64,000 nt of DNA, from positions 1,824,001 through 1,888,000 of the forward strand of contig OY970393.1 in the NCBI GenBank assembly GCA_963720465.1, read 5' to 3'. The translations under genes and the position numbers were made by a program. Position 1 is the first letter of the stretch, and every line of letters starts with the position of its first letter. Positions 11,854 through 61,427 of the stretch are shown in pieces. This DNA is from Methanobacteriota archaeon (GTDB lineage Archaea; Halobacteriota; Bog-38; Methanoflorentales; Methanoflorentaceae). The notes under the pieces are model-generated. The model did not search any database. It was not told the origin of the DNA and worked only from the letters and a program-made list of their open reading frames with translations.

Positions 11854-12002
11854 GTGCTGACCGCAGCAGCTTTGCGGTTTGCGATAATCTGCTGTTTACA
11901 GTGTAGGCGAGACCGCTTTAAGCCCCTTACGGTTTTGTCGCGCGGGCGCTGCGCATCGGCTGTTCTTTGTTAAGTTGGGCTTTGAAGCAGTCATCGCCGA
12001 GC

Positions 12003-12062
12003 TGTGACACGAACGCGGTGTCACGCGTTTACACGCAATTCTTGCCTCACGCGGCCTTATAG
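12003..12062 (+). promoter_or_regulatory. Operator array (2 units) plus TATA-like box of the Cys-microprotein cassette
   Basis: GTGACAC-N7-GTGTCAC palindrome, 26-bp period, CTCACGCGGCCTTAT as at 24116 and 54770. Confidence 0.7.
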
Positions 12063-12089: not shown

Positions 12090-13100
12090 GTGAACGTTAT
12101 AGCGACAAATGTAGCAAGCACACAAACGGGCGGACTGCTGTACGCGGGTGTCGCCTCGGCGCTGCGGATAAACAGGCGAATTGAAAACGACGAGATTCCA
12201 CTCTTTATGCAACGGTGCGTCATCGACGCAATGCGCTGGGAAGTCGGCGGAACGCAGTACGAACAGTGGCGCGCTGAAAACGGCAACGGGAAAGATCCAG
12301 CCGTTAAATGGCGTGACGAGGTGGTTACGCCCTACCTCCAGCAGCGATTTGATGGGCTAGAACTGCGAGGCGATGGCCATCTTTGTGGTATCCGACACGA
12401 TAACGATGAGGAGATTGACGAGCGTTTCTACGACACGCAACAGCTTCGAGGCTCCATGCTCGCAAAGTGCCCGGGACAACGATGGCTGTTTGCTCTCGGG
12501 TGCTGCCGAAGATACAGACCGCAGTAGAGTTCGCGTCTTTTTCGAAGGTCGCGAGAGGCTGACGGTGTTCCGCGTGCACCAGCAAGGGCGTGTGCTACTG
12601 CGTCCATTTACGCGTCCGCGTACTCGATGTCCGGAAAGGCGTCTTCGAATTCGAGCCTCCTGTCCGTAAGCTTGTTGTACACGATTACCGCCTCTTGTGG
12701 GGTTAGTGGCGTCAGTTCCGGGTCGCGCTCATCGTCGTCGCCAAAGAACGGCACTGTTTTTTCGTATTTGAAATAGCACCCGCTAGGCGTCCGGAACAGG
12801 TCGACGTTCTTGAGGCCAGTTTTCAGCGTTTCAATGCAGAACTGGTGCTCGTTCCGCGCAAGAAGGATACCTGTATCGGTGTCGCACACCACGCCGCCAA
12901 ACGCTTGTTTCATAGACATACCGTTTGGATGACCTCACAGTTAAACTTTGTATGTGCGCGCGGAAAGTAAAATAGCCTCACGCGAAAAAAGCGATGGCTG
13001 CGCGAACACGACGAACGATCTGAAGTGCAACAAGTGCGCAAAGCGCGTCGCGGATGCGGTTAACGGCGCGCTTCTGCCGCGACATAGCAGCTTCAACTAA
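12090..13100 (+). pseudogene. Split, degenerate copy of the Cys-rich microprotein gene
   Basis: 5' half at 12090-12144 (VNVIATNVAST..., ATG changed to ATA); 3' half at 12996-13100 (GCANTTNDLKCNKCAKRVADAVNGALLPRHSSFN*); ~850 bp of unrelated DNA between. Confidence 0.75.
12608..12919 (-). CDS. Small acidic hypothetical protein, phage/plasmid-like
   Basis: MKQAFGGVVCDTDT...LFRTPSGCYF...PLTPQEA pattern recalls small mobile-element proteins; GAGG upstream. Confidence 0.7.
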   Translation of the reverse strand: MSMKQAFGGVVCDTDTGILLARNEHQFCIETLKTGLKNVDLFRTPSGCYFKYEKTVPFFGDDDERDPELTPLTPQEAVIVYNKLTDRRLEFEDAFPDIEYADA

Positions 13101-23994: not shown

Positions 23995-24115
23995 AATCTG
24001 CCTAACCTCTCGTTTCGGTGGTATTTGAGTAGCTTGTCTTAAGGATACTGACCCGCGGAGCGCAGCGCACAAGGTTGCGGGCATCGCGTACACTCCCCGG
24101 CTTGTGCACGCAGGT

Positions 24116-24202
24116 GTGACACAAACGTGCTGTCACGCTTTCCCATACAAACGTGCTGTCACGCTTTCCCACACAATCCCTGTCTCACGCGGCCTTATGA
24201 AA
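24116..24202 (+). promoter_or_regulatory. Operator array (3 x 26 bp) plus TATA-like box of the Cys-microprotein cassette
   Basis: ACAAACGTGCTGTCACGCTTTCCCAY x2 plus a degenerate third unit; GTGACA-N9-TGTCAC palindrome; CCTTATGAAA. Confidence 0.75.
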
Positions 24203-24236
24203 CTACTCTGAGCAGGGTAGCTTGGAGATGAACCTT

Positions 24237-24395
24237 ATGGCAACGAACGTAACGAGCATAAAAAACGGCGCCTGTCTGTATGGCCTTCGCTTCGGCTGCG
24301 TGAACACGACCAACGATCCGAACTGCAACAAGTGTGCAGAGCGCCTCGCCAACGCCGTGAACAGCGTGCTTCGACCGACGCACGGAAGAGCTTGA
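24237..24395 (+). CDS. 52-aa Cys-rich microprotein (not in ORF track)
   Basis: MATNVTSIKNGACLYGLRFGCVNTTNDPNCNKCAERLANAVNSVLRPTHGRA; GGAGATGA RBS; paralog at 54891 with many synonymous differences. Confidence 0.85.
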   Translation: MATNVTSIKNGACLYGLRFGCVNTTNDPNCNKCAERLANAVNSVLRPTHGRA

Positions 24396-24826
24396 GCGAA
24401 TAATGAGTTCCCAAAACGTTCATTTCACGGTGAATATGGCCACAGCAACGAGTCATATGAGGCGCGGGGCACGCGTGACTACCTAGTTTTTGCGGCGTCA
24501 TTGGCGTATTGGCTTGCCCTGCGCCAGCAGCGGAGGCAGGCACCGCTCATCATGCCACTCGTGGTGGGTGTTGGCCGGGGCGTTGGTCTTCGCGGTCGCG
24601 TTGTGTCGAGGCACCCAAGCCCGTTCCACGCGCAGAATGTGACAGGCTGGTTGGTGACCCATTTGCTGCTGGCGATAACCCACTACCTAGGAGATCTCGC
24701 GAGGGGGCTGTCCAGCCTAGGGGGATCCGACTTCCTGTAGGTTCTCACTTTTTTTGGCCCCAATCAAAGGGCCACCTTCTTAGGCGTCGCATTTTATATA
24801 AGTCGTCAATTTGACGCTGTAACGCC

Positions 24827-31851: not shown

Positions 31852-32171
31852 GAACGATACGAGCGTACTAACACCGCATACTCCATTATGCGAGTTGAAC
31901 CTTTGGAACCTTTGAACTATAGGAACTGCGGTGTTCCTGCCGCAGAAGATAGCGGTCAAATAATAAAACTCCAATAAAGGAAGCAGCGCAGCGGCGAAGA
32001 GAAAAAAGAAGGGCGATCAAACGTACGTCTGATGTTCGGAGGTATTTATTCATTTTTTGACCACTTGAACACCACTACAGGTTCTACGGTCACATTTCAA
32101 CCGAAGCCTTTATACTTTCTTCCGACGCGTTCTCAGGCGTCTAGTGTCTGCGAACATTGCAACAAGCAATC

Positions 32172-33413
32172 ATGCGCTCATACAAAACCGTCTCATTTTC
32201 TGTAGTCATCCTTCTTGTTACCGTCTTGTTTGCAGGCGTTGTAACTGTTCCTGCAGCAGCGCAGTACGATGCTATGCAATATCGGTATAACGCTGCGCAC
32301 ACCGGTGATTACAGCCCTGTGGCGGGGAGCAACATGTCGAATGGTCAGCTGACGTGGAGCTTCACGACGGGAAGCGTCGTGCTCTCCTCCCCTGCCGTCG
32401 CCAACGGCGTCGTCTACGTGGGGAGCCAGGACAACAACGTCTACGCCCTCAACGCTACTACCGGGGCGAACGTGTGGACTTTCGCGACAGGGAGCGAGAT
32501 GTACTCTTCCCCCGCCGTCGCCAACGGCGTCGTCTACGTGGCCAGCGAGGACAACAACGTCTACGCCCTCAACGCTACCACCGGGGCGAAGCTTTGGAAC
32601 TACACGACCGGAAACGCCGTGCTCTCCTCTCCAGCCGTCGCCAACGGCGTCGTCTACATCGGGAGCGATGACAACAACACCTACGCCCTCAACGCGAATA
32701 ACGGCACCAAGCTCTGGAACTACACGACCGGAAACGCCGTGCTCTCCTCTCCAGCCGTCGCCAACGGCGTCGTCTACGTGGGAAGCGAGGACAACAACAC
32801 CTACGCCCTCAACGCGAATAACGGCACCAAGCTCTGGAACTACACGACCGGAAACGCCGTCCTCTCCTCTCCTGCGGTCGCCAACGGCGTCGTCTACGTG
32901 GGGAGCCAGGACAACAACACCTACGCCCTCCACGCTACCACCGGGGCGAAGCTCTGGAACTACACGACCGGAGGTGGGGTTTATTCATCCCCCGCCGTCG
33001 CCAACGGTACGGTCTACGTGGGGAGCGAGGACAACAACGTCTACGCCCTGAACGCCACCAGCGGGGCCAAGCTCTGGAACGACACGACAGGGAGCGAGGT
33101 GTTCTCTTCCCCCGCCGTCGCCAACGGTACGGTCTACGTGGGGAGCGATGACAGCAACGTTTACGCCCTCAACGCCACCACCGGCAAGGTGACGTGGAGC
33201 TTCACGACCGGTGATGAGGTGTCCTCCTCTCCCGCCGTCGTAAACGGCACGGTCTACGTGGGGAGCTTTGACAGCTACGTCTACGCCATCGGCAACGCGG
33301 CCGCGGCCACAAGTCAGCGTGTGACGTCCGGCTTTGAGGTCACGCTCGTTTTTGTCGGACTCGTTTTTGTCGGACTCGTAATCGCCGCTTACGTAGTAAG
33401 GAGGAAGCGCTAA
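32172..33413 (+). CDS. PQQ/BamB-like beta-propeller surface protein with PGF-CTERM-like anchor (SGF variant)
   Basis: Signal peptide; eight 40-aa SSPAVANGVVYVGS...YALNA repeats; TSGFE-TM-RRKR. Confidence 0.93.
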   Translation: MRSYKTVSFSVVILLVTVLFAGVVTVPAAAQYDAMQYRYNAAHTGDYSPVAGSNMSNGQLTWSFTTGSVVLSSPAVANGVVYVGSQDNNVYALNATTGANVWTFATGSEMYSSPAVANGVVYVASEDNNVYALNATTGAKLWNYTTGNAVLSSPAVANGVVYIGSDDNNTYALNANNGTKLWNYTTGNAVLSSPAVANGVVYVGSEDNNTYALNANNGTKLWNYTTGNAVLSSPAVANGVVYVGSQDNNTYALHATTGAKLWNYTTGGGVYSSPAVANGTVYVGSEDNNVYALNATSGAKLWNDTTGSEVFSSPAVANGTVYVGSDDSNVYALNATTGKVTWSFTTGDEVSSSPAVVNGTVYVGSFDSYVYAIGNAAAATSQRVTSGFEVTLVFVGLVFVGLVIAAYVVRRKR

Positions 33414-33710
33414 CCCCCTCCGCCTGCTTTTTCTTTACGCGCAGGTGGCGGGCTGAAACGCCCGTGTACCGATAATGAGTGGGCCACGTCTGTGGGTTAA
33501 CAAGGAGTTATCAAGCGCTGTCGGAGCTGGTGGTGCCCGAATCAGAGCCGCCTGAGCCTACCGCGACTAAGACCGTTCCGGGTAGCAGGAGCACGACAAG
33601 TCGCCCAGTATTGCAAAGACACGAAATCACTTATTTGCACCGAAGCCTTTATCATATCTTCTGACACGTTCTCAGGCGTCTGGTGTCTAGGAACATTGCA
33701 CGAGGCAATC

Positions 33711-34943
33711 ATGAGCGTCTACAAAATCGCCTCATTTTCTTTAGCAATCTTCCTCATTGCTGTCTTATTTGCAGGCGTCGTAACTGTTCCTGCAGCAGCA
33801 CAGTCCGGTTCTACCCAGTTCCATTACAACGCCCAGCACACCGGTGATTACAGCCCTGTAGCGGGGAACAACGCGTCGAGTGGCAAGCTCACGTGGAGCT
33901 TCACGACAGGAGCCGCCGTCCTCTCCTCCCCCGCCGTCGTCAACGGCGTCGTCTACGTGGGAAGCGATGACAACAACCTCTACGCTCTGAACGCCACCAC
34001 AGGGGCGAAAGTGTGGGGCTACACGACAGGAGATCAGGTTTATTCATCCCCCGCCGTCGCCAACGGCACGGTCTACGTGGGCAGCGATGACAACAACGTC
34101 TACGCCATAAATGCCACGACCGGCACTAAGCTCTGGAACTACACGACCGGAAACGCCGTCCTCTCCTCTCCTGCGGTCGCCAACGGCACGGTCTACGTGG
34201 GGAGCGATGACAACAACGTCTACGCCCTCAACGCCACCACAGGGGCGAACACGTGGAGCTTCACGACCAGTGCTGCCGTCCTCTCCTCTCCTGCGGTCGC
34301 CAACGGCGTCGTCTACGTGGGAAGCGAGGACAACAACACCTACGCCCTCAACGCGAATAACGGCACCAAGCTTTGGAACTACACGACCGGAAACGCCGTC
34401 CTCTCCTCTCCTGCGGTCGCCAACGGCGTCGTCTACGTGGGGAGCCAGGACAACAACACCTACGCCCTCAACGCTACCACCGGGGCGAAGCTGTGGAACT
34501 ACACGACCGGAGGTGGGGTTTATTCATCCCCCGCTGTCGCCAACGGCACGGTTTACGTGGGCAGCGATGACAACAACGTCTACGCCCTGAACGCCACCAG
34601 CGGGGCCAAGCTCTGGAACGACACGACAGGGAGCGAGGTGTTCTCTTCCCCCGCCGTCGCCAACGGTACGGTCTACGTGGGGAGCGATGACAGCAACGTC
34701 TACGCCCTCAACGCCACCACCGGCAAGGTGACGTGGAGCTTCACGACCGGAAACGAGGTGCTCTCCTCTCCCGCCGTCGCCAACGGCACGGTGTATGTGG
34801 GGAGCTATGACGACAACGTCTACGCCGCCGGCACAGCTGCGGCCACGGGTACGACGCCCGGCTTCGAGGTCGGACTCGTTTTTGTCGGACTCGTTTTTGT
34901 CGGACTCGTAATCGCCGCTTACGTAGTAAGGAGGAAGCGCTAA
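33711..34943 (+). CDS. PQQ/BamB-like beta-propeller surface protein with PGF-CTERM
   Basis: Tandem paralog with eight repeats; TPGFE-TM-RRKR. Confidence 0.93.
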   Translation: MSVYKIASFSLAIFLIAVLFAGVVTVPAAAQSGSTQFHYNAQHTGDYSPVAGNNASSGKLTWSFTTGAAVLSSPAVVNGVVYVGSDDNNLYALNATTGAKVWGYTTGDQVYSSPAVANGTVYVGSDDNNVYAINATTGTKLWNYTTGNAVLSSPAVANGTVYVGSDDNNVYALNATTGANTWSFTTSAAVLSSPAVANGVVYVGSEDNNTYALNANNGTKLWNYTTGNAVLSSPAVANGVVYVGSQDNNTYALNATTGAKLWNYTTGGGVYSSPAVANGTVYVGSDDNNVYALNATSGAKLWNDTTGSEVFSSPAVANGTVYVGSDDSNVYALNATTGKVTWSFTTGNEVLSSPAVANGTVYVGSYDDNVYAAGTAAATGTTPGFEVGLVFVGLVFVGLVIAAYVVRRKR

Positions 34944-44357: not shown

Positions 44358-44878
44358 CTACGAAGCACATAAGAGGCGCCAAGTTCTGACCGATGCCGTC
44401 TTCAAAACGTCGTGCACGCGGTGCGACGTCGGGATCACAATGGGGTAATGATCGGCCGACCCTGGTATGTGCAAGATCGGCCATGCAGATTAAATCGATA
44501 TGGCCGCCTTTGGCGAGTAAGCACAAATGAGCACGCAAAACCCCAATCATCGCCTTGACACGCTTTGGTTTGACGTATCACGTGCGTGCCGCTCTTACTA
44601 CGGGTTTGGCTTCGTTCTAGCACAGCTTCAAGAAAAAGCTGGTCGCGCAGCACTCCGAAAGAAGAATCCGCGAAGCACAACGAGGCAGCAGTTAAGCGGC
44701 TGTAACGACGGCGGTGGAAAAAAGAAAGGCGAGCAAACCGACGTTAGATCGTTCGAATGTAGCCATTTTTTGACCATTTAGACATCGCTGCATCGTTTTT
44801 GCGGTCACGTGGGACCGAAGCATTTTTATGTCCCTTTAACGCGTCTTACCTAAAGGAAGGTTTTTACCGAGGCAACCT

Positions 44879-46351
44879 ATGCGCGCATATAAAATCGTCC
44901 CTATTTCTATAGCAGTTCTTCTCGTTACCGTGCTATTTGCGGGTGTCATCACCGTGAGTGTGGCTTCGACTCCCCTGACCCCATCCTCCGGACTCTCCCT
45001 CTCGGCCAGCACCACCGCCCCCACCGTCAAGCAGTCCGTCACCTTCACCGCCACTCTCAAGAGCGGCTCAACGGACCTGTCGTCCAAGTCCGTCACCATC
45101 TACCACTACCTCAACGGCGTCCGCTACAACGACGCCGCCAAGGCCACCAACGCCAATGGCCAGATCACCCTCACCACGAGCTTTGGCTCCGCCGGTAAGC
45201 GCACCTACTACGCCACCTTTGCCGGTGACAGCTCCTATCAAGCATCGACAAGCAGCGTCGTCACCGTCAACGTGAAGGCCGATCCCGAGCCACAACCGAG
45301 CGTTACACTCACGGCGTCCACCACCGCCCCCACCGTCAAGCAGTCCGTCACCTTCACCGCCACTCTCAAGAGCGGCTCAACGGACCTGTCGTCCAAGTCC
45401 GTCACCATCTACCACTACCTCAACGGCGTCCGCTACAACGACGCCGCCAAGGCCACCAACGCCAATGGCCAGATCACCCTCACCACGAGCTTTGGCTCCG
45501 CCGGTAAGCGCACCTACTACGCCACCTTTGCCGGTGACAGCTCCTATCAAGCATCGACAAGCAGCGTCGTCACCGTCAACGTGAAGGCCCAGAACACGGT
45601 CGACCCCCCAACCAGCACTCAAACTATCTATTACGTTCCCCAGGCGGGATCAACGTGGGTCAACCAAGGGACGGCAGGCGCCAGCTATAACGCGTACTGC
45701 AGCAATCCTGCCTCATTTCAGACCCAGTCAAATGGCTACCCCTATTGGGGTGACGACACGAGCAGTGATTTTGTCTGCATCCCGGCGGGCAGCGCAACCA
45801 ACAACCAGAACGTCGTTTCGTGGGAGATAGGGTTTCATTTCTCCGGAGTAGTGGCTGGCCAGCGCTACCAGAAAATTTGGGATAAAGCGTATGGCGGGTT
45901 CTTCATTGAAATTGACACCAATTACGGCCCTAATGCGAGTTACCTGACCCTCTACCGCGCCACGACCGGCGGCAGTGGCGCGCGGTGGTACATACCCACT
46001 ACTACGCCACTCCGCGCAGGCCACAATTACTACATTCAAATTTCGTGGAACACGAGCGCGGGCCCGGGACACGAACCGTATCCGACGATCTGGATCGGTG
46101 AGGACGGAAAAGCCCCGGTGCTTCAAACGAGCTGGGACGAGAGCGGCGGTGCTCTTGCCGGAACCGGATCGTGGTACAACGACGCAGTAGGGTCTGCGAA
46201 CCTGGGAAATACGGCGTCAGACGGTGGCCACGACACGTCGTCGAAGATTGCCCCGCTCAACGGCGGCATCTTTGTGTATCGGCAATTCAATTCAATCATT
46301 AATTTCAGCAATGGCGGAAACTGGAACACCGATAAACTGCGCTGGGCCTAG
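44879..46351 (+). CDS. Secreted protein with two identical Ig-like (Big) domains and a ConA/LamG-like C-terminal domain
   Basis: Signal peptide; SVTFTATL...TNANG...YYATFAGDSSYQAS x2; aromatic beta-rich C-terminus. Confidence 0.8.
   Translation: MRAYKIVPISIAVLLVTVLFAGVITVSVASTPLTPSSGLSLSASTTAPTVKQSVTFTATLKSGSTDLSSKSVTIYHYLNGVRYNDAAKATNANGQITLTTSFGSAGKRTYYATFAGDSSYQASTSSVVTVNVKADPEPQPSVTLTASTTAPTVKQSVTFTATLKSGSTDLSSKSVTIYHYLNGVRYNDAAKATNANGQITLTTSFGSAGKRTYYATFAGDSSYQASTSSVVTVNVKAQNTVDPPTSTQTIYYVPQAGSTWVNQGTAGASYNAYCSNPASFQTQSNGYPYWGDDTSSDFVCIPAGSATNNQNVVSWEIGFHFSGVVAGQRYQKIWDKAYGGFFIEIDTNYGPNASYLTLYRATTGGSGARWYIPTTTPLRAGHNYYIQISWNTSAGPGHEPYPTIWIGEDGKAPVLQTSWDESGGALAGTGSWYNDAVGSANLGNTASDGGHDTSSKIAPLNGGIFVYRQFNSIINFSNGGNWNTDKLRWA
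45011..45589 (+). repeat. 270-bp intragenic direct repeat (period 309)
   Basis: 45011-45280 appears identical to 45320-45589. Confidence 0.92.
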
Positions 46352-51433: not shown

Positions 51434-51976
51434 GTGAGATGCATTGCTTTGTTGCGCGGAATCAACGTCAGCGGTCGAAAAACCGCAACTATGACGGATG
51501 TAAAAAGAGTTTTTGAATCGCTGAGTTTTGAAAATGTGAGAACGTACGCTCAGAGTGGCAACGTCATTTTCGAGTGCAGGTGTGCTGAAAAGGCAAAAAT
51601 TGCCGCGTGCGTGGAAGAAAAGTTACGCGAAACCTTTGGGTTTTCGACAGACGTACTCATCAGGACGCAGCCTGAACTCGAGACTATCATCGATAATAAT
51701 CCGCTTATCAATAGCGCAGGTGTAAGGCCGGACAAGCTGTATGTCACCTTTTTGTCAGATGCGCCAGACGAAACGGTCGCGTCAACCCTCGACATAAAAC
51801 TCGACCAAGGTGAGATGTTCGTAATTGTTGGCAAGGAAGTGTATCTCTATTGCCCGAATGGGTATGCCAGGACAAAGCTGAACAACGCTATGTTCGAAAC
51901 GAAGCTGAAAACGGCAGCAACAACGAGGAACTGGAAAACGATAAACAAATTGCTCGTCATTTCAAAATTAAGTTAG
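51434..51976 (+). CDS. DUF1697 family protein
   Basis: IALLRGINVSG, VRTYAQSGNV, TTRNWKTI. Confidence 0.95.
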   Translation: MRCIALLRGINVSGRKTATMTDVKRVFESLSFENVRTYAQSGNVIFECRCAEKAKIAACVEEKLRETFGFSTDVLIRTQPELETIIDNNPLINSAGVRPDKLYVTFLSDAPDETVASTLDIKLDQGEMFVIVGKEVYLYCPNGYARTKLNNAMFETKLKTAATTRNWKTINKLLVISKLS

Positions 51977-52050
51977 TGAGGCAACCTGGGCAATCAAGTT
52001 GGGAATTGCGCGGATCCTGTGACGCGGCGTTGGTATCGAGTTCCCAAAGG

Positions 52051-52860: not shown

Positions 52861-52934
52861 CTGATGTGCCTCTCGACATAATAGGTCGTGTCGTCTCTTG
52901 ATTGTAACTGCGTCATAGTGATAGGTGGCACAAC

Positions 52935-53106
52935 AGTGTATCGCTATTGCCCGAATGGGTATGCTAGGATGACGCTCAACAACGCGAAGTTCGAAACGAA
53001 GCTGAAAACGGCAGCAACAACGAGGAATTGGAAAACGATAAACAAATTGCTCGTCATTTCCAAATTAAGTTAGTGAGGCAACCTGGGCAATCAAGTTGGG
53101 AATTGC
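52935..53106 (+). repeat. Direct repeat of the DUF1697 3' end and 3' flank (51838-52009)
   Basis: About 170 bp near-identical: YCPNGYAR...KLLVISKLS* plus TGAGGCAACCTGGGCAATCAAGTTGGGAATTGC. Confidence 0.92.
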
Positions 53107-53171
53107 AAGGATTCGTCACACAGCGACGAGCATCGCAAATGAGAACGGACTGCCTTTAGCAACAGCGTGCT

Positions 53172-54606: not shown

Positions 54607-54769
54607 GCCCCATCTTGTATCGTTTGATGGCTCGAAGAACAGGGGAGTTATCAAAACTGCTTCGCGGCGATTAAGGAATTGGGTATTTTCGAGCTTAGCA
54701 GGTCACACGCTGCCGTTAATGACGTAGGATACTATTGGTCACTTCCCGCGAACGCGGACGCCGTTAGGT

Positions 54770-54856
54770 GTGACACAAAGATGCTGTCACGCTTTCCCAC
54801 ACAAAGATGCTGTCACGAGTTCCAACGCAATCTATGTCTCACGCGGCCTTATGAAA
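54770..54856 (+). promoter_or_regulatory. Operator array (3 x 26 bp) plus TATA-like box of the Cys-microprotein cassette
   Basis: ACAAAGATGCTGTCACG x2 at 26-bp period, degenerate third unit, CTCACGCGGCCTTATGAAA. Confidence 0.75.
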
Positions 54857-54890: not shown

Positions 54891-55046
54891 ATGGCTACGA
54901 ATGCAACAACCATAAAAAACGGAGCCTGCTGGTATGGCCTCCACTTCGGCTCCTTGAACACCACAAACGATCCGAACTGCACCAAGTGCGCAGAGCGCCT
55001 CGGCCACGCCGTGAACAGCGTGCTTCGCCCCCCGCAGCGCGGTTAA
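54891..55046 (+). CDS. 51-aa Cys-rich microprotein (not in ORF track)
   Basis: MATNATTIKNGACWYGLHFGSLNTTNDPNCTKCAERLGHAVNSVLRPPQRG; GGAGATGA RBS. Confidence 0.85.
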   Translation: MATNATTIKNGACWYGLHFGSLNTTNDPNCTKCAERLGHAVNSVLRPPQRG

Positions 55047-56840: not shown

Positions 56841-57737
56841 TTATATCCGCGTATTATCGTATCTAACCTTCCAATACCCGAGCACAACGAGCGCCTTAAG
56901 CGCGTAGTAGGCGTTCTCGAGGCTCGAAATGCCTGAATCGACAGCCCGCCGAAACCCGCCGTTGGCGTTCTGGAGCTGGCCGATGAACCGGGCGATCTCC
57001 TGTCGGTAGCGGGGGCTCTCGTTCACCGCCTGCATAATGGAGAGCCCCCGGTGGATCTCGTCGAGGTAGTTGGGCGTATTCATGGGCGTTTGCGAGAATC
57101 CTCCGGTCTTCCACTCGCATCGCCGTATCCATTGTGAGACGCCCGCAAGGCAGTCTGCTGGGGAGAAGGAGAGCGCCTGTACCGCATTGTACGTCGAATA
57201 GATCGACGCGTGGTCAACACCGAATCCTCCCTCGGGACGCCGGTATTGACGTACCGCCGCGACGACCTCAGTCTTGACCGCTGGCGAGGGTTCTTTGCGT
57301 CGGAGGGCGAGGATCGCAACGGCCCTGCCCAGAGATTCAAGGAACGAGTTACTGAGCTGGTAGTACGGCTGAGATACGATACTGAGCGTACCCCTCAACT
57401 GGCTGTGCAGAAAGTCGTCCGAATCGAAGAGCGGCGGCACGCCCAAAAGATCGAGCACGCGAAGAACGTAATCGGCTGAGTAAATGCTCTGGAAGGAGCC
57501 ATCGCTGCCTTGGCGTTGTTGTAGGAAGTCTGCCGTCAGCTCAGGCTCCGGCACGGGTCGATTAAGCGCCGTGAGCGCGTACACTGCATAGAAGGTGTCG
57601 GCTGCGTTCGACTCGTTGAGGCGATAGAAGCAGTACCCGCCGTCATCGTTCCTCGTGCTTTCGACGTATCCGACGAGTTGACGCACGTCAAACCGTAACA
57701 GTTTCTCGTTCACTCCGGTCAATAGTAGTGCCTTCAT
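56841..57737 (-). CDS. Prenyltransferase/squalene oxidase repeat protein
   Basis: RNDDGGY, QGSDGSF, PEGGFG, QNANGGF repeats; DTFYAV. Confidence 0.88.
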   Translation of the reverse strand: MKALLLTGVNEKLLRFDVRQLVGYVESTRNDDGGYCFYRLNESNAADTFYAVYALTALNRPVPEPELTADFLQQRQGSDGSFQSIYSADYVLRVLDLLGVPPLFDSDDFLHSQLRGTLSIVSQPYYQLSNSFLESLGRAVAILALRRKEPSPAVKTEVVAAVRQYRRPEGGFGVDHASIYSTYNAVQALSFSPADCLAGVSQWIRRCEWKTGGFSQTPMNTPNYLDEIHRGLSIMQAVNESPRYRQEIARFIGQLQNANGGFRRAVDSGISSLENAYYALKALVVLGYWKVRYDNTRI

Positions 57738-58107
57738 CCTTGGCAAGTGCACCCGGTGGACGATGGCCGACGTGACGCGACTAAAATTGCGAGTAAAATA
57801 GCGATACCCACGAGCAATGGGGTTGCATCAGGATACACGGTGGCTCCCTCCGTTGGCTTGCGAATTTCGTAGGAGTCATCAGCCTTATGCGGTTACGGTG
57901 AACTCCATCACCCGTGCATGGCACATACGTATGTTCTTACATAACTATTGCGGCTGTGCACGCCTCCCGTCCTCAAAAGAAGCGGTGGGGGTCCACGAAT
58001 ACTGATCGACATTGCTTCCGGCAGCCATTGTGCTCACATCGTTCACAAACTGAAGGCGCTATCGCGATCTCTGCCACGTTCTTGAATGTTTGGCTACTAC
58101 CGGTCGG

Positions 58108-60232: not shown

Positions 60233-60318
60233 AAGTTGTCAAATTATTATTTACTTAGCCGTTATTTATATATACCTCTTACACCCCATATCAATCGTTG
60301 TTAAATTTTTGACAACTT
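60233..60318. promoter_or_regulatory. Probable TrmB operator sites around a divergent TATA region
   Basis: AAGTTGTCAAA (60233) and TTTGACAACTT (60308) are inverted; palindrome GTTGTTAAATTTTTGACAAC at 60297-60316; TTTATATATA between. Confidence 0.65.
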
Positions 60319-60431
60319 CAATAGCAAAATGATTGCAGGCAAAGATAGCATGGAAACTAAAAATCTTTGCTTATATTCGGCCGACCTGCTCCGTGCACGG
60401 CCACGAGAGTAAAAACTGACTGAGGTTTATA

Positions 60432-61427
60432 ATGTCCGATATCATTAGCGTCGAAAACCTTGTCAAGGTGTATCCTGGAGGTACACGGGCTGTCGATGGG
60501 ATCTCGTTCAGTGTGAGCGAAGGCGAGTTCTTTGGGTTCCTCGGCCCGAATGGTGCGGGAAAGAGCACGACGATCCAGGTTCTCACGACACTGCTGAAGA
60601 AAACCTCCGGCTCTGCGACCGTTGCTGGCTACGATGTTGAAACGGATGCACGGGAGATACGCAAAGTTATCGGCGTCCAACGCCAGGAGACCATTCTGGA
60701 CGGGGACCTGACGGGCCGCGAGAACCTCACCCTTCAAGGGCACCTTCAGCGGTTGCACGGTGATGCTCTCAAAAAACGCGTGGACGAACTGCTCACACTC
60801 GTCGAGCTCTCGGACGTCGCTGACAAGAGGGCGGCACACTACTCCGGAGGGATGAAAAAGCGGCTCGACCTCGCATCTACCCTTGTTCACAAACCACGCG
60901 TGCTCTTTCTAGACGAGCCGACCTCGGGGCTCGATCCCCAATCGCGCGCAGCTATATGGGAGCACCTCGAGACGCTCAACAGAGAGGGGGGTGTAACGGT
61001 TTTTTTGACAACCCAGCAGATGGAAGAAGCCGACAGGCTCTGTCAACGGCTCTCAATAATCGATCACGGAGAGATTATTGTAGGTGGCTCGCCCGTAGAA
61101 CTCAAACATCAACTCGGCGGTGACACCATCACGCTGTCACTGGCCGACGCGGACTCAGACGGCGTAAGAGATAGATCAAAGCGGATTGTTAGCGGCATTC
61201 AAGGTGTTACCAAAGTCCTCGATATCGAAACGGGACTGGCGGCATACGCCAAGAACGCGGGCGCTCTCGTTCCCGATATCGTACGACTATTTGACGAGAA
61301 CGGGATTCGCTTGACGTCAATCAACGTCGCATCTGCCTCGCTGGATGACGTCTTTTTGCAGCACACAGGAAGACGGATACGATCAGAAGAACTGTCGAAA
61401 GGAGATACGTGGAAAGGACACGTGTGA
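60432..61427 (+). CDS. ABC-2 exporter ATP-binding protein (DrrA-like)
   Basis: GPNGAGKST, YSGGMKKRL, LDEPTSGLDP, SLDDVF. Confidence 0.96.
   Translation: MSDIISVENLVKVYPGGTRAVDGISFSVSEGEFFGFLGPNGAGKSTTIQVLTTLLKKTSGSATVAGYDVETDAREIRKVIGVQRQETILDGDLTGRENLTLQGHLQRLHGDALKKRVDELLTLVELSDVADKRAAHYSGGMKKRLDLASTLVHKPRVLFLDEPTSGLDPQSRAAIWEHLETLNREGGVTVFLTTQQMEEADRLCQRLSIIDHGEIIVGGSPVELKHQLGGDTITLSLADADSDGVRDRSKRIVSGIQGVTKVLDIETGLAAYAKNAGALVPDIVRLFDENGIRLTSINVASASLDDVFLQHTGRRIRSEELSKGDTWKGHV

Follow-up and report, generated by a model that had tools for sequence, protein, structure and literature searches.

What is the short, cysteine-rich gene that recurs behind one and the same array of 26-bp operator-like units in this archaeal DNA, and what might control it? 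The stretch analysed here (the window; 64,000 nucleotides) belongs to a genome that consists of a single contig of 2,313,764 bp with 51.7% G+C, on which the archaeal small-subunit (SSU) model scores 1583 bits and in which a C-terminus resembling the TATA-binding protein (TBP) is visible upstream of one paralog of the gene. The gene products are microproteins of a real, paralogous and lineage-restricted family, found at three sites of the window (copies A, B and C) and elsewhere in the genome (paralogs D to I). The explanation that best accommodates the evidence, with a nearly even chance of being correct, is a lineage-specific regulon of putative Zn-binding microproteins, each preceded by an operator array of a palindrome and half-sites, and most likely controlled by linked, expanded TrmB-like regulators.

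Each intact copy displays the same order of elements, namely a 25-bp palindrome (GTGTGACA-N9-TGTCACGC), one or two units at 26-bp spacing that bear the right half-site only, a TATA-like CCTTATGA, a GGAG and an open reading frame (ORF) of about 50 codons (Table 1). The three units of copy A follow one another at this 26-bp period, and the third ends 2 bases before CCTTATGA. The 15-mer CTCACGCGGCCTTAT, located at 24184-24198 in copy A and at 12046-12060 in copy C, occurs three times in the window at no more than two mismatches, compared to 0.13 expected and a count of three reached in 0 of 100 shuffles; genome-wide it has 4 occurrences, all on the + strand. The preliminary description had counted three copies in 64 kb. 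This stands for the window, where copies A and B are intact and copy C is split by an 847-bp insert, but the limit to three does not: a family hidden Markov model (HMM) built from 71 sequences recovers 9 members in the genome when run on its six translated frames (E 6e-30 to 3.5e-8; next match E 0.4), and a promoter profile points to two further sites, one a degenerate copy and the other a remnant with the promoter alone. The core of the 145-aa ORF within the copy C insert has paralogs at genome 1641197 and 774641, and neither insert ORF (145 and 103 aa) has a match in Pfam.

The microprotein frame is under purifying selection. For 31 intact sequences, of which 28 belong to related loci and 3 to this genome (pseudogene L035 excluded), the Nei-Gojobori method gives a median ratio of nonsynonymous to synonymous divergence (dN/dS) of 0.20, calculated from the 452 pairs (out of 465) in which dS>0.1, while copies A and B differ at pN 0.089 and pS 0.332 (dN/dS 0.22). 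Both ratios lie well away from 1, in agreement with the selection on the protein proposed earlier. As a control, all six frames were compared in 21 ungapped sequences; the peptide frame alone is open in 21/21 and has the lowest pN/pS (0.19), compared to 2.66 in the frame of an overlapping 102-aa antisense ORF (24235-24543). In 401/452 pairs the 98 nt located 5' of the start codon have diverged less than the synonymous sites, and the non-coding part is therefore also constrained. Parts of a 1.3-kb stretch around the gene are present in 22 RNA-library runs, and contigs examined from four of these, each belonging to another study, contain the peptide gene at 90-99% identity, as exemplified by contigs of 207 nt (covering 24174-24380) and 291 nt (covering 24156-24406). 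These contigs are compatible with expression of the microprotein gene but are no proof of it; because they also span the operator and neighbouring genes and indicate neither strand nor ends, they are not used to derive a transcription start, a strand or a level. The contig starts at 24174 and 24176 in two studies look like branch points of the assembly graph at the conserved promoter, not transcript starts, and the uncovered bins at 24700-24787 carry no meaning.

The microprotein was sought with a word index, an exhaustive representative search of 1.84 billion proteins, a scan of species genomes and the six-frame HMM search of its own genome; related loci from the species-genome scan bear L-numbers and proteins of the representative library P-numbers. 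The word index returns 32 homologous proteins of 30-85 aa, each 'hypothetical' or unnamed, the representative search 50 clusters at E<=1e-3, and the species-genome scan 36 loci, all in archaeal metagenome-assembled genomes (MAGs) with record titles that refer to bogs, fens and peat experiments, several of the loci sharing one MAG. Left out of the HMM were P0032, P0042, P0051, P0059, P0075 and P0076, together with part of the over-extended ORFs of the P0019 type. P0059 (2954 aa, with 9 short stretches) and the repeat protein P0075 were disregarded because they do not resemble the family, and P0076 is a chimera with the C-terminal half of the microprotein alone. Within the archaeal class of the window, comprised of one family and two genera, 21 of the 24 genomes examined are positive with 2-11 matches each, the three match-free genomes being 59, 61 and 86% complete. 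When 301 genomes from across the phylum were sampled, every one of the 21 positives fell within that one family, with 0/277 among the others. No relatives of the family are present in Pfam or NCBIfam, the PDB profile search gives nothing below E 0.31, and the Protein Atlas search returns unnamed clusters only, at 0.82, which is the tool's stated noise range. The peptide thus matches no characterised family, and its designation as undescribed and multicopy is sustained; for the former, no earlier description was found, as judged by the absence of family models and names and by literature searches not aimed at the sequence motif.

The family is characterized by a Cys4 mini-domain with the consensus C-x-Y-G-x3-G-C-x7-8-C-x2-C-A-E-R-L-x3-V. 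An alignment of 58 members shows no variation at Y15 and C30 and next to none at C13, G16, G20, C21, C33, A34, E35, R36, L37 and V41. Conservation spans the whole domain, with a core that begins at residue 7-13, and is followed by hypervariable C-terminal tails that are longer in many members, up to ~90 aa. A hydrophobic segment is absent, and the isoelectric point (pI) is 9.2 for protein A, with medians of 8.5 for the full-length family and 7.9 for the conserved core. The best explanation of these features would be a cytoplasmic protein comprised of a conserved Cys4 mini-domain and a subsequent amphipathic helix; AlphaFold2 places one helix at residues 30-45, starting at the CxxC, with modest confidence. 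With their last pair at the N-terminus of this helix, the four conserved Cys residues suggest a small Zn(Cys)4 site. In these respects the microproteins are reminiscent of the C(P)XCG micro-proteins of haloarchaea, typified by HVO_0758 from Haloferax volcanii and Brz from Halobacterium salinarum, which are likewise archaeal, no longer than 70 aa (protein A has 52 and protein B 51 residues), equipped with four candidate metal ligands and represented by many paralogs. Small one-domain zinc-finger micro-proteins of haloarchaea are the subject of PMC6562870, PMC10716476 and PMC11241148, and Brz is summarized in PMC2253796 as a small archaeal zinc-finger protein that regulates bop transcription. 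However, two C(P)XCG-like motifs are not found in the 58-member alignment, which displays one CxxC (C30 and C33), isolated C13 and C21 residues and no CPxCG; since the defining motif is lacking, the microprotein is not a member of that family. Its motif is instead C-x7-C-x8-C-x2-C, without similarity in Pfam or the PDB, its zinc binding is putative, every paralog carries the same operator-promoter, and the family is confined to one non-halophilic class.

The conserved operator and promoter proposed ahead of each copy have a counterpart in all 34 loci tabulated with the core motif as reference point. In every one of them the full palindrome constitutes the 5'-most unit, followed at the 26-bp period by a repeat and the core in 15 loci and by the core directly in 19, among which are counted L028 (two mismatches in the distal unit) and L010 (Ns). 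Spacers of the two upstream units are more alike within a locus (7.27/9) than between loci (6.08/9), a difference reached in 0 of 10,000 permutations with the kinship of orthologues ignored, which points to recurrent local duplication or homogenisation of the 26-bp unit. Of the 35 upstream regions listed, 33 show little or no change in the TATA-like CCTTATGA. Because the full palindrome of paralog F itself occupies the core position and abuts the TATA-like box, the core CTCACGC is taken as a right half-site at the position of the transcription factor B recognition element (BRE). The second genus keeps the layout with a diverged core (GTCACTCAGGCTTAAGA) and CTTAAGA or CTTATAA as the TATA-like box, and many of its loci bear a second, divergent microprotein paralog in tandem. 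A genome-wide nhmmer search with the promoter profile finds 8 places at E<=1.4e-10, each a family member or a remnant of one. That the system is tightly regulated, as the preliminary description held, is what such an arrangement of the DNA would suggest. Two further kinds of match were set aside: exact GTGACA-N9-TGTCAC at window 61120-61140 (genome 1885120) and at genome 75704 lies inside paralogous ABC ATPase coding sequences, where it encodes GGDTITLSL, and is no operator; CACGCGG[CG]CTTA at genome 2032580 and 1770920 comes without palindrome or peptide gene and is left as chance or unknown.

Candidates for the regulator are found directly behind two of the paralogs. The ORF after paralog D (291 aa; PF01978, E 4.9e-13) starts one base after the stop codon of D, and the 449-aa ORF behind paralog F (PF01978, E 5.6e-28), which overlaps the end of F, contains two helix-turn-helix (HTH) stretches; both present an N-terminal TrmB winged helix above the 25.6-bit cut-off, with no second Pfam domain at E<=0.01. 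A PDB profile search matches residues 6-110 of the TrmB-like regulator to TrmB (3qph; E 8.9e-5), and the C-terminal domain of these proteins, where TrmB and TrmBL1 have a sugar-binding effector domain, has a weak PLD-like match (E 1.2e-6). Their scores against the NCBIfam TrmB and TrmBL1 equivalogs are only 19-25 bits (24.8 vs 650) where the cut-offs are 600-650, and they therefore constitute a distinct subgroup. The genome encodes ~11 TrmB-like paralogs, and the array behind paralog F (genome 303598-310473, -) opens with the double-HTH TrmB-like gene and continues with ORFs that alternate between the C-domain-only and the TrmB-like type, one of which is frameshifted. The order of peptide gene and TrmB gene recurs in 5 of the 36 related loci (L021, with an overlapping TAATG; L022; L025 and L026, with a 40-nt gap; and L028, with a 237-nt gap) and also at L058 of the sister genus (genus 2). 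The first codons of a TrmB gene remain behind the long-tailed peptides of L023 and L024, which suggests that the peptide-TrmB pair is ancestral and solitary cassettes are derived. Of the four options offered in the preliminary description, membership in a regulon fits best, because TrmB-family genes directly follow some of the paralogs.

The known regulons of TrmB, TrmBL1 and Tgr in Thermococcales and of TrmB in Halobacterium resemble the present system in the linkage of a winged-helix TrmB-domain regulator and in palindromes placed before or at the BRE and TATA box of many dispersed promoters. As set out in PMC4158304, TrmB-family proteins recognize palindromic inverted repeats (TACT-N3-AGTA, TATCAC-N5-GTGATA and TACT-N7-8-GAGTA), a site upstream of BRE/TATA is associated with activation and one at or after it with repression, and autoregulation has been proposed for members of the family. 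The half-site GTGACA/TGTCAC resembles that of the TGM of Thermococcales (TATCAC-N5-GTGATA). A distal palindrome combined with a half-site that touches the TATA-like box fits the positional logic of TrmB sites, with activation and repression not separable. The targets here would be microprotein genes rather than those of sugar metabolism and transport, the additional half-sites at a 26-bp period distinguish the operator, and its binding by a TrmB-like protein is putative.

On this footing we infer metal binding, an operator-binding protein, a direction of regulation and a cellular role for the family along the following lines. One composite type of archaeal promoter would drive each microprotein gene. 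A dimeric winged-helix regulator would bind the distal 25-bp palindrome GYGTGACA-N9-TGTCACRC and would spread or cooperate along the right half-sites spaced at 26 bp, the last of which (YCTCACGC) lies at the BRE, directly against the weak TATA-like box, and could thereby gate the access of TBP and transcription factor B (TFB), such that all paralogs would be switched together. The best candidate for this regulator would be the TrmB-family protein whose gene directly follows paralogs D and F, in which case the D and F operons would be autoregulated and the dispersed copies, A and B included, would be members of the regulon. The microproteins would most likely bind one Zn through their four Cys residues and may work as small regulators or adaptors, perhaps with feedback to the expanded TrmB-like set. 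The promoter and the ORF would be duplicated or lost together as one block (~340 bp), and new copies would appear in this way.

Several observations weigh against this explanation, on the side of both the regulator and the metal. Only 2/9 paralogs of this genome and the 5/36 related loci adjoin a TrmB gene, and copies A and B do not. A promoter-like AACGTATATCT element or the 237-nt gap separates the peptide and TrmB genes of L025, L026 and L028, for which co-transcription is consequently not assured. The other TrmB paralogs are preceded by a different promoter (AACCTATATCT...) that lacks the palindrome, its TATA lying at the same distance as the TATA-like box of the cassette. The half-site centres are 15 bp apart across a 9-nt spacer, wider than in TrmB sites, where the spacer is 3-8 nt. 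Regarding zinc, Cys2 is replaced by Ser in copy B, paralog I lacks both Cys1 and Cys2, and the AlphaFold2 models are of low confidence (pLDDT 58.8 from 21 and 61.0 from 58 aligned sequences) and lend the site no support; the 58-sequence model has 0 Foldseek matches in the PDB. The RNA-library contigs, lastly, could stem from DNA carry-over.

A bolder version of the regulon would make the Cys4 microproteins new metal- or redox-sensing partner subunits, or a mini DNA-binding domain, of an expanded TrmB-like family that is not devoted to sugars, with modules that duplicate as 340-bp units and a response tuned by copy number and by the 26-bp repeats; this is an unlikely elaboration. A modelled complex of the D-type TrmB-like protein, the D-type peptide and Zn (score 0.00, mark 0.32) is neutral with regard to binding. 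RRNPP-type quorum-sensing cassettes of Firmicutes are pairs of a peptide and a receptor regulator, and they are similar insofar as a very small ORF adjoins the gene of a transcription factor with an effector domain. Here, in contrast, the peptide has no signal or leader and a folded-looking Cys4 domain, the regulator is of another family and the host is an archaeon.

The microprotein could itself be the regulator, its Cys4 knuckle and basic helix forming a new mini DNA-binding domain that would attach, in dimeric or oligomeric form, to the array of palindrome and half-sites, which would render each unit a self-contained autoregulatory cassette. The promoter and ORF always move together as the ~340-bp unit, no other place in the genome bears this promoter, the pI values of protein A and of the full-length family are on the basic side, and small archaeal zinc-finger regulators of transcription do exist, Brz being the example that PMC2253796 presents. 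Nevertheless, the conserved core is only mildly basic, Pfam, the PDB profile search and Foldseek reveal no recognisable DNA-binding fold or homologue, and a winged-helix candidate of the TrmB family is genetically linked. Autoregulation by the peptide, another of the four options in the preliminary description, is improbable, if still worth keeping in view beside control by the linked TrmB-like proteins.

Less probable again is that the peptides are precursors or products of an exported Cys-rich peptide, akin to a bacteriocin, a signal or a ribosomally synthesized and post-translationally modified peptide (RiPP), that would leave the cell through ABC-2 type transporters with the TrmB-like protein as sensor or regulator. 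They are indeed Cys-rich and multicopy, with hypervariable tails, and an ABC ATPase paralog lies no more than 3 kb from 4 of the 11 cassette sites (5054, 1735021, 1009939 and the remnant at 374052), where about 1 would be expected from ~30 paralogs in 2.3 Mb on a rough count; an ABC-2 permease is located 1.1 kb from copy C. However, a leader or signal sequence is absent, given a conserved core that starts so near the N-terminus, and no transporter adjoins copies A and B. Clustering of the ORFs within 3 kb on either side of 45 loci, with Pfam run on part of the neighbours, shows no family common to non-orthologous loci except the ABC ATPase paralogs and TrmB, and the ABC enrichment is marginal because that family is large. 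The RiPP-like precursor that the preliminary description had offered fits poorly for the same reasons, having neither a leader nor a neighbouring enzyme family shared between non-orthologous loci.

That the cassette is primarily a small non-autonomous mobile element, with conservation of the ORF a secondary matter, appears quite improbable, although its positions do vary. The context of copy A, with a short-chain dehydrogenase (SDR) and a zinc-ribbon protein as neighbours, is shared with L002 and L039 only, and that of copy B, with a thioredoxin neighbour, with L020 only; conserved positions across species were considered and rejected, as the window contexts are common only to the closest relatives. 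Other species of the genus have the SDR locus without the cassette, homology ending at window 24047-24058. The A-type copy stands at another locus in L003, L005, L010 and L015, both flanks of which are present in this genome (990-985 kb) around an empty site where genome 987211 joins 987186. What the two kinds of A-type locus share is a compact unit of ~340 bp (window ~24055-24396) that ends at the stop codon; in blastn against the window, homology begins at 24055 (L007), 24075 (L005) and 24094 (L015). Rearrangement inside the gene is seen in copy C and in P0076. On the other hand, neither terminal inverted repeats nor target-site duplications were seen at the junctions read, which offer only a GCGGAAG microhomology (left junction), a repeat search of the window shows no inverted repeat flanking the cassette, and no transposase domain is present in the neighbours scanned. 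The segment missing at the empty site varies from 747 to 1285 bp with the comparison made, which looks like deletion or segmental duplication and not precise excision, and the purifying selection on the protein is strong. The polymorphism is therefore attributed to duplication and deletion, en bloc, of a minimal unit of promoter and gene rather than to transposition. The small mobile unit of the preliminary description was thus half right: the unit does occupy different loci in close relatives, but without inverted repeats, target-site duplications, which it had proposed to look for at the cassette ends, or a transposase.

A transcribed, structured RNA leader in place of a DNA operator is the least credible of the alternatives, for although the palindrome could fold into a hairpin (8-bp stem, 9-nt loop) and RNA-library contigs include the operator region, the half-sites are nearly invariant and the loop variable, the few half-site changes (L015, L028 and L032) are non-compensatory, the inner units cannot pair because they have one half-site only, Rfam gives no match over the cassette at gathering thresholds, and the array is followed by a TATA-like box and a Shine-Dalgarno sequence at the spacing typical of other promoters in the genome.

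Annotation regularly overlooks small proteins, and very little is known of how archaea regulate them. The present family amounts to a natural repeated experiment, in which one promoter architecture and one microprotein are combined about ten times per genome in about twenty genomes. New here are the TrmB-family genes directly downstream of two paralogs of this genome, of five of the 36 related loci and of one locus of the sister genus. The full palindrome, the 26-bp half-site repeats and the half-site at the BRE position are DNA elements open to testing, as is the linked family of candidate regulators. Were the link to TrmB true, TrmB regulons would extend beyond sugar metabolism, and there would be a handle on gene regulation in an abundant, uncultured class of peatland archaea. 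The presence/absence polymorphisms, for their part, show a minimal promoter-plus-gene unit spreading without transposon machinery.

Table 1. Positions of the cassette elements of copies A, B and C (window coordinates) and of the remaining family members and remnants (genome coordinates).
Feature	Position	Strand	Details or basis
Upstream edge of cassette A, shared with A-type copies elsewhere	window 24055..24113	+	GGGCATCGC..CCCCGGC..GCACGC; blastn of L007, L005, L015
Copy A, operator unit 1, full 25-bp extended palindrome	window 24114..24138	+	GTGTGACA-CAAACGTGC-TGTCACGC
Copy A, operator unit 2, right half-site only	window 24140..24164	+	TTCCCATA-CAAACGTGC-TGTCACGC; spacer as in unit 1
Copy A, core unit 3, abutting the TATA-like box (BRE position)	window 24166..24190	+	TTCCCACA-CAATCCCTG-TCTCACGC
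Copy A, putative TATA-like box	window 24193..24200	+	CCTTATGA; ~40 nt 5' of start codon
Copy A, Shine-Dalgarno-like sequence	window 24224..24231	+	GGAGATGA; 9 nt 5' of ATG; GGAG at 24224-24227
Copy A, microprotein gene, 52 aa	window 24237..24395	+	C13-x7-C21-x8-C30-x2-C33, then AERL..AVN helix
Copy B, operator array	window 54768..54844	+	units at 54768 (palindrome), 54794 and 54820 (core)
Copy B, TATA-like box	window 54847..54854	+	CTCACGCGGCCTTAT-type motif at 54838-54852
Copy B, microprotein gene, 51 aa	window 54891..55046	+	Cys2 replaced by Ser; 81% identity to A over 47 aa
Copy C, operator	window 12002..12062	+	palindrome 12002-12026, core unit 12028-12052, TATA-like box 12055-12062; nhmmer E 2.1e-17
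Copy C, 5' remnant of microprotein gene	window 12099..12147	+	ATG changed to ATA at 12099; in-frame fusion into 145-aa ORF starting at GTG 12090
Copy C, 847-bp insert after ~codon 16	window 12148..12994		most of 145-aa ORF (+); 103-aa ORF (-, 12608-12919)
Copy C, 3' remnant of microprotein gene	window 12995..13100	+	GCANTTNDLKCNKCAKRVADAVNGALLP...; degenerate substitutions
Paralog D	genome 369535	+	
Paralog E	genome 5066	-	
Paralog F	genome 310476	-	
Paralog G, 5'-truncated	genome 1735009	+	
Paralog H	genome 300727	-	
Paralog I, without Cys1 and Cys2	genome 1009909	+	
Degenerate cassette copy	genome 1574834-1574744		promoter profile
Promoter-only cassette remnant, then 12-codon stub	genome 374052-373986	-	promoter profile

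Some observations concern the immediate surroundings of these features. The SDR gene beside copy A most likely starts at ATG 23994 (-) (MASIL..) and not at GTG 24093, the start of the longest ORF, and cassette A therefore does not overlap it. At paralogs E (5237-4926, -) and H (300957-300482, -), the shared promoter precedes a ~45-aa helical ORF (MAKKEVTEYERH.. and MANRELTKLESD.., respectively) that is followed by the Cys peptide, and the metagenome protein P0069 is a fusion of this leader ORF of E/H-type loci to the Cys domain. The promoter remnant at 374052-373986 (-) is followed, after ~300 nt, by an ABC ATPase-like ORF (372752-373672) and a 251-aa ORF. A second lineage-specific multicopy family, comprised of ~85-aa ORFs (..EVDELILEIADYKNDYADMAAEKL..RQQLRRIIKRIQV..) of which several have in-frame stops, occupies genome 987237-987524, 742293-742583, 64236-64526, 1735315-1735602 and at least 11 further sites; the empty A-type site and paralog G are each flanked by one copy.

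Elsewhere in the window, the sole Rfam match is a fluoride riboswitch (RF01734; 57863-57921, -; 57.7 bits, E 2.1e-13) just upstream of a 303-aa ORF (56841-57752, -). Two adjacent ORFs of ~415 aa (32157-33413 and 33696-34943, +) each consist of ~7-8 tandem 120-nt (40-aa) repeats of 60-89% identity, and their upstream regions are 80% alike. A 36-nt motif (..ATTTTTTGACCA.TT..A.A.C) at 32044-32079, 44757-44792 and 60296-60331 sits just 5' of three different ORFs, both repeat-protein genes among them, and may represent another shared promoter or operator. A direct repeat of 195 nt with 90% identity is found at 51821-52015 and 52918-53112, 1097 nt apart, and a pair of 282-nt segments at 44999-45589 (+), 99% identical and 309 nt apart within a 490-aa ORF (44879-46351), looks like a very recent internal duplication.

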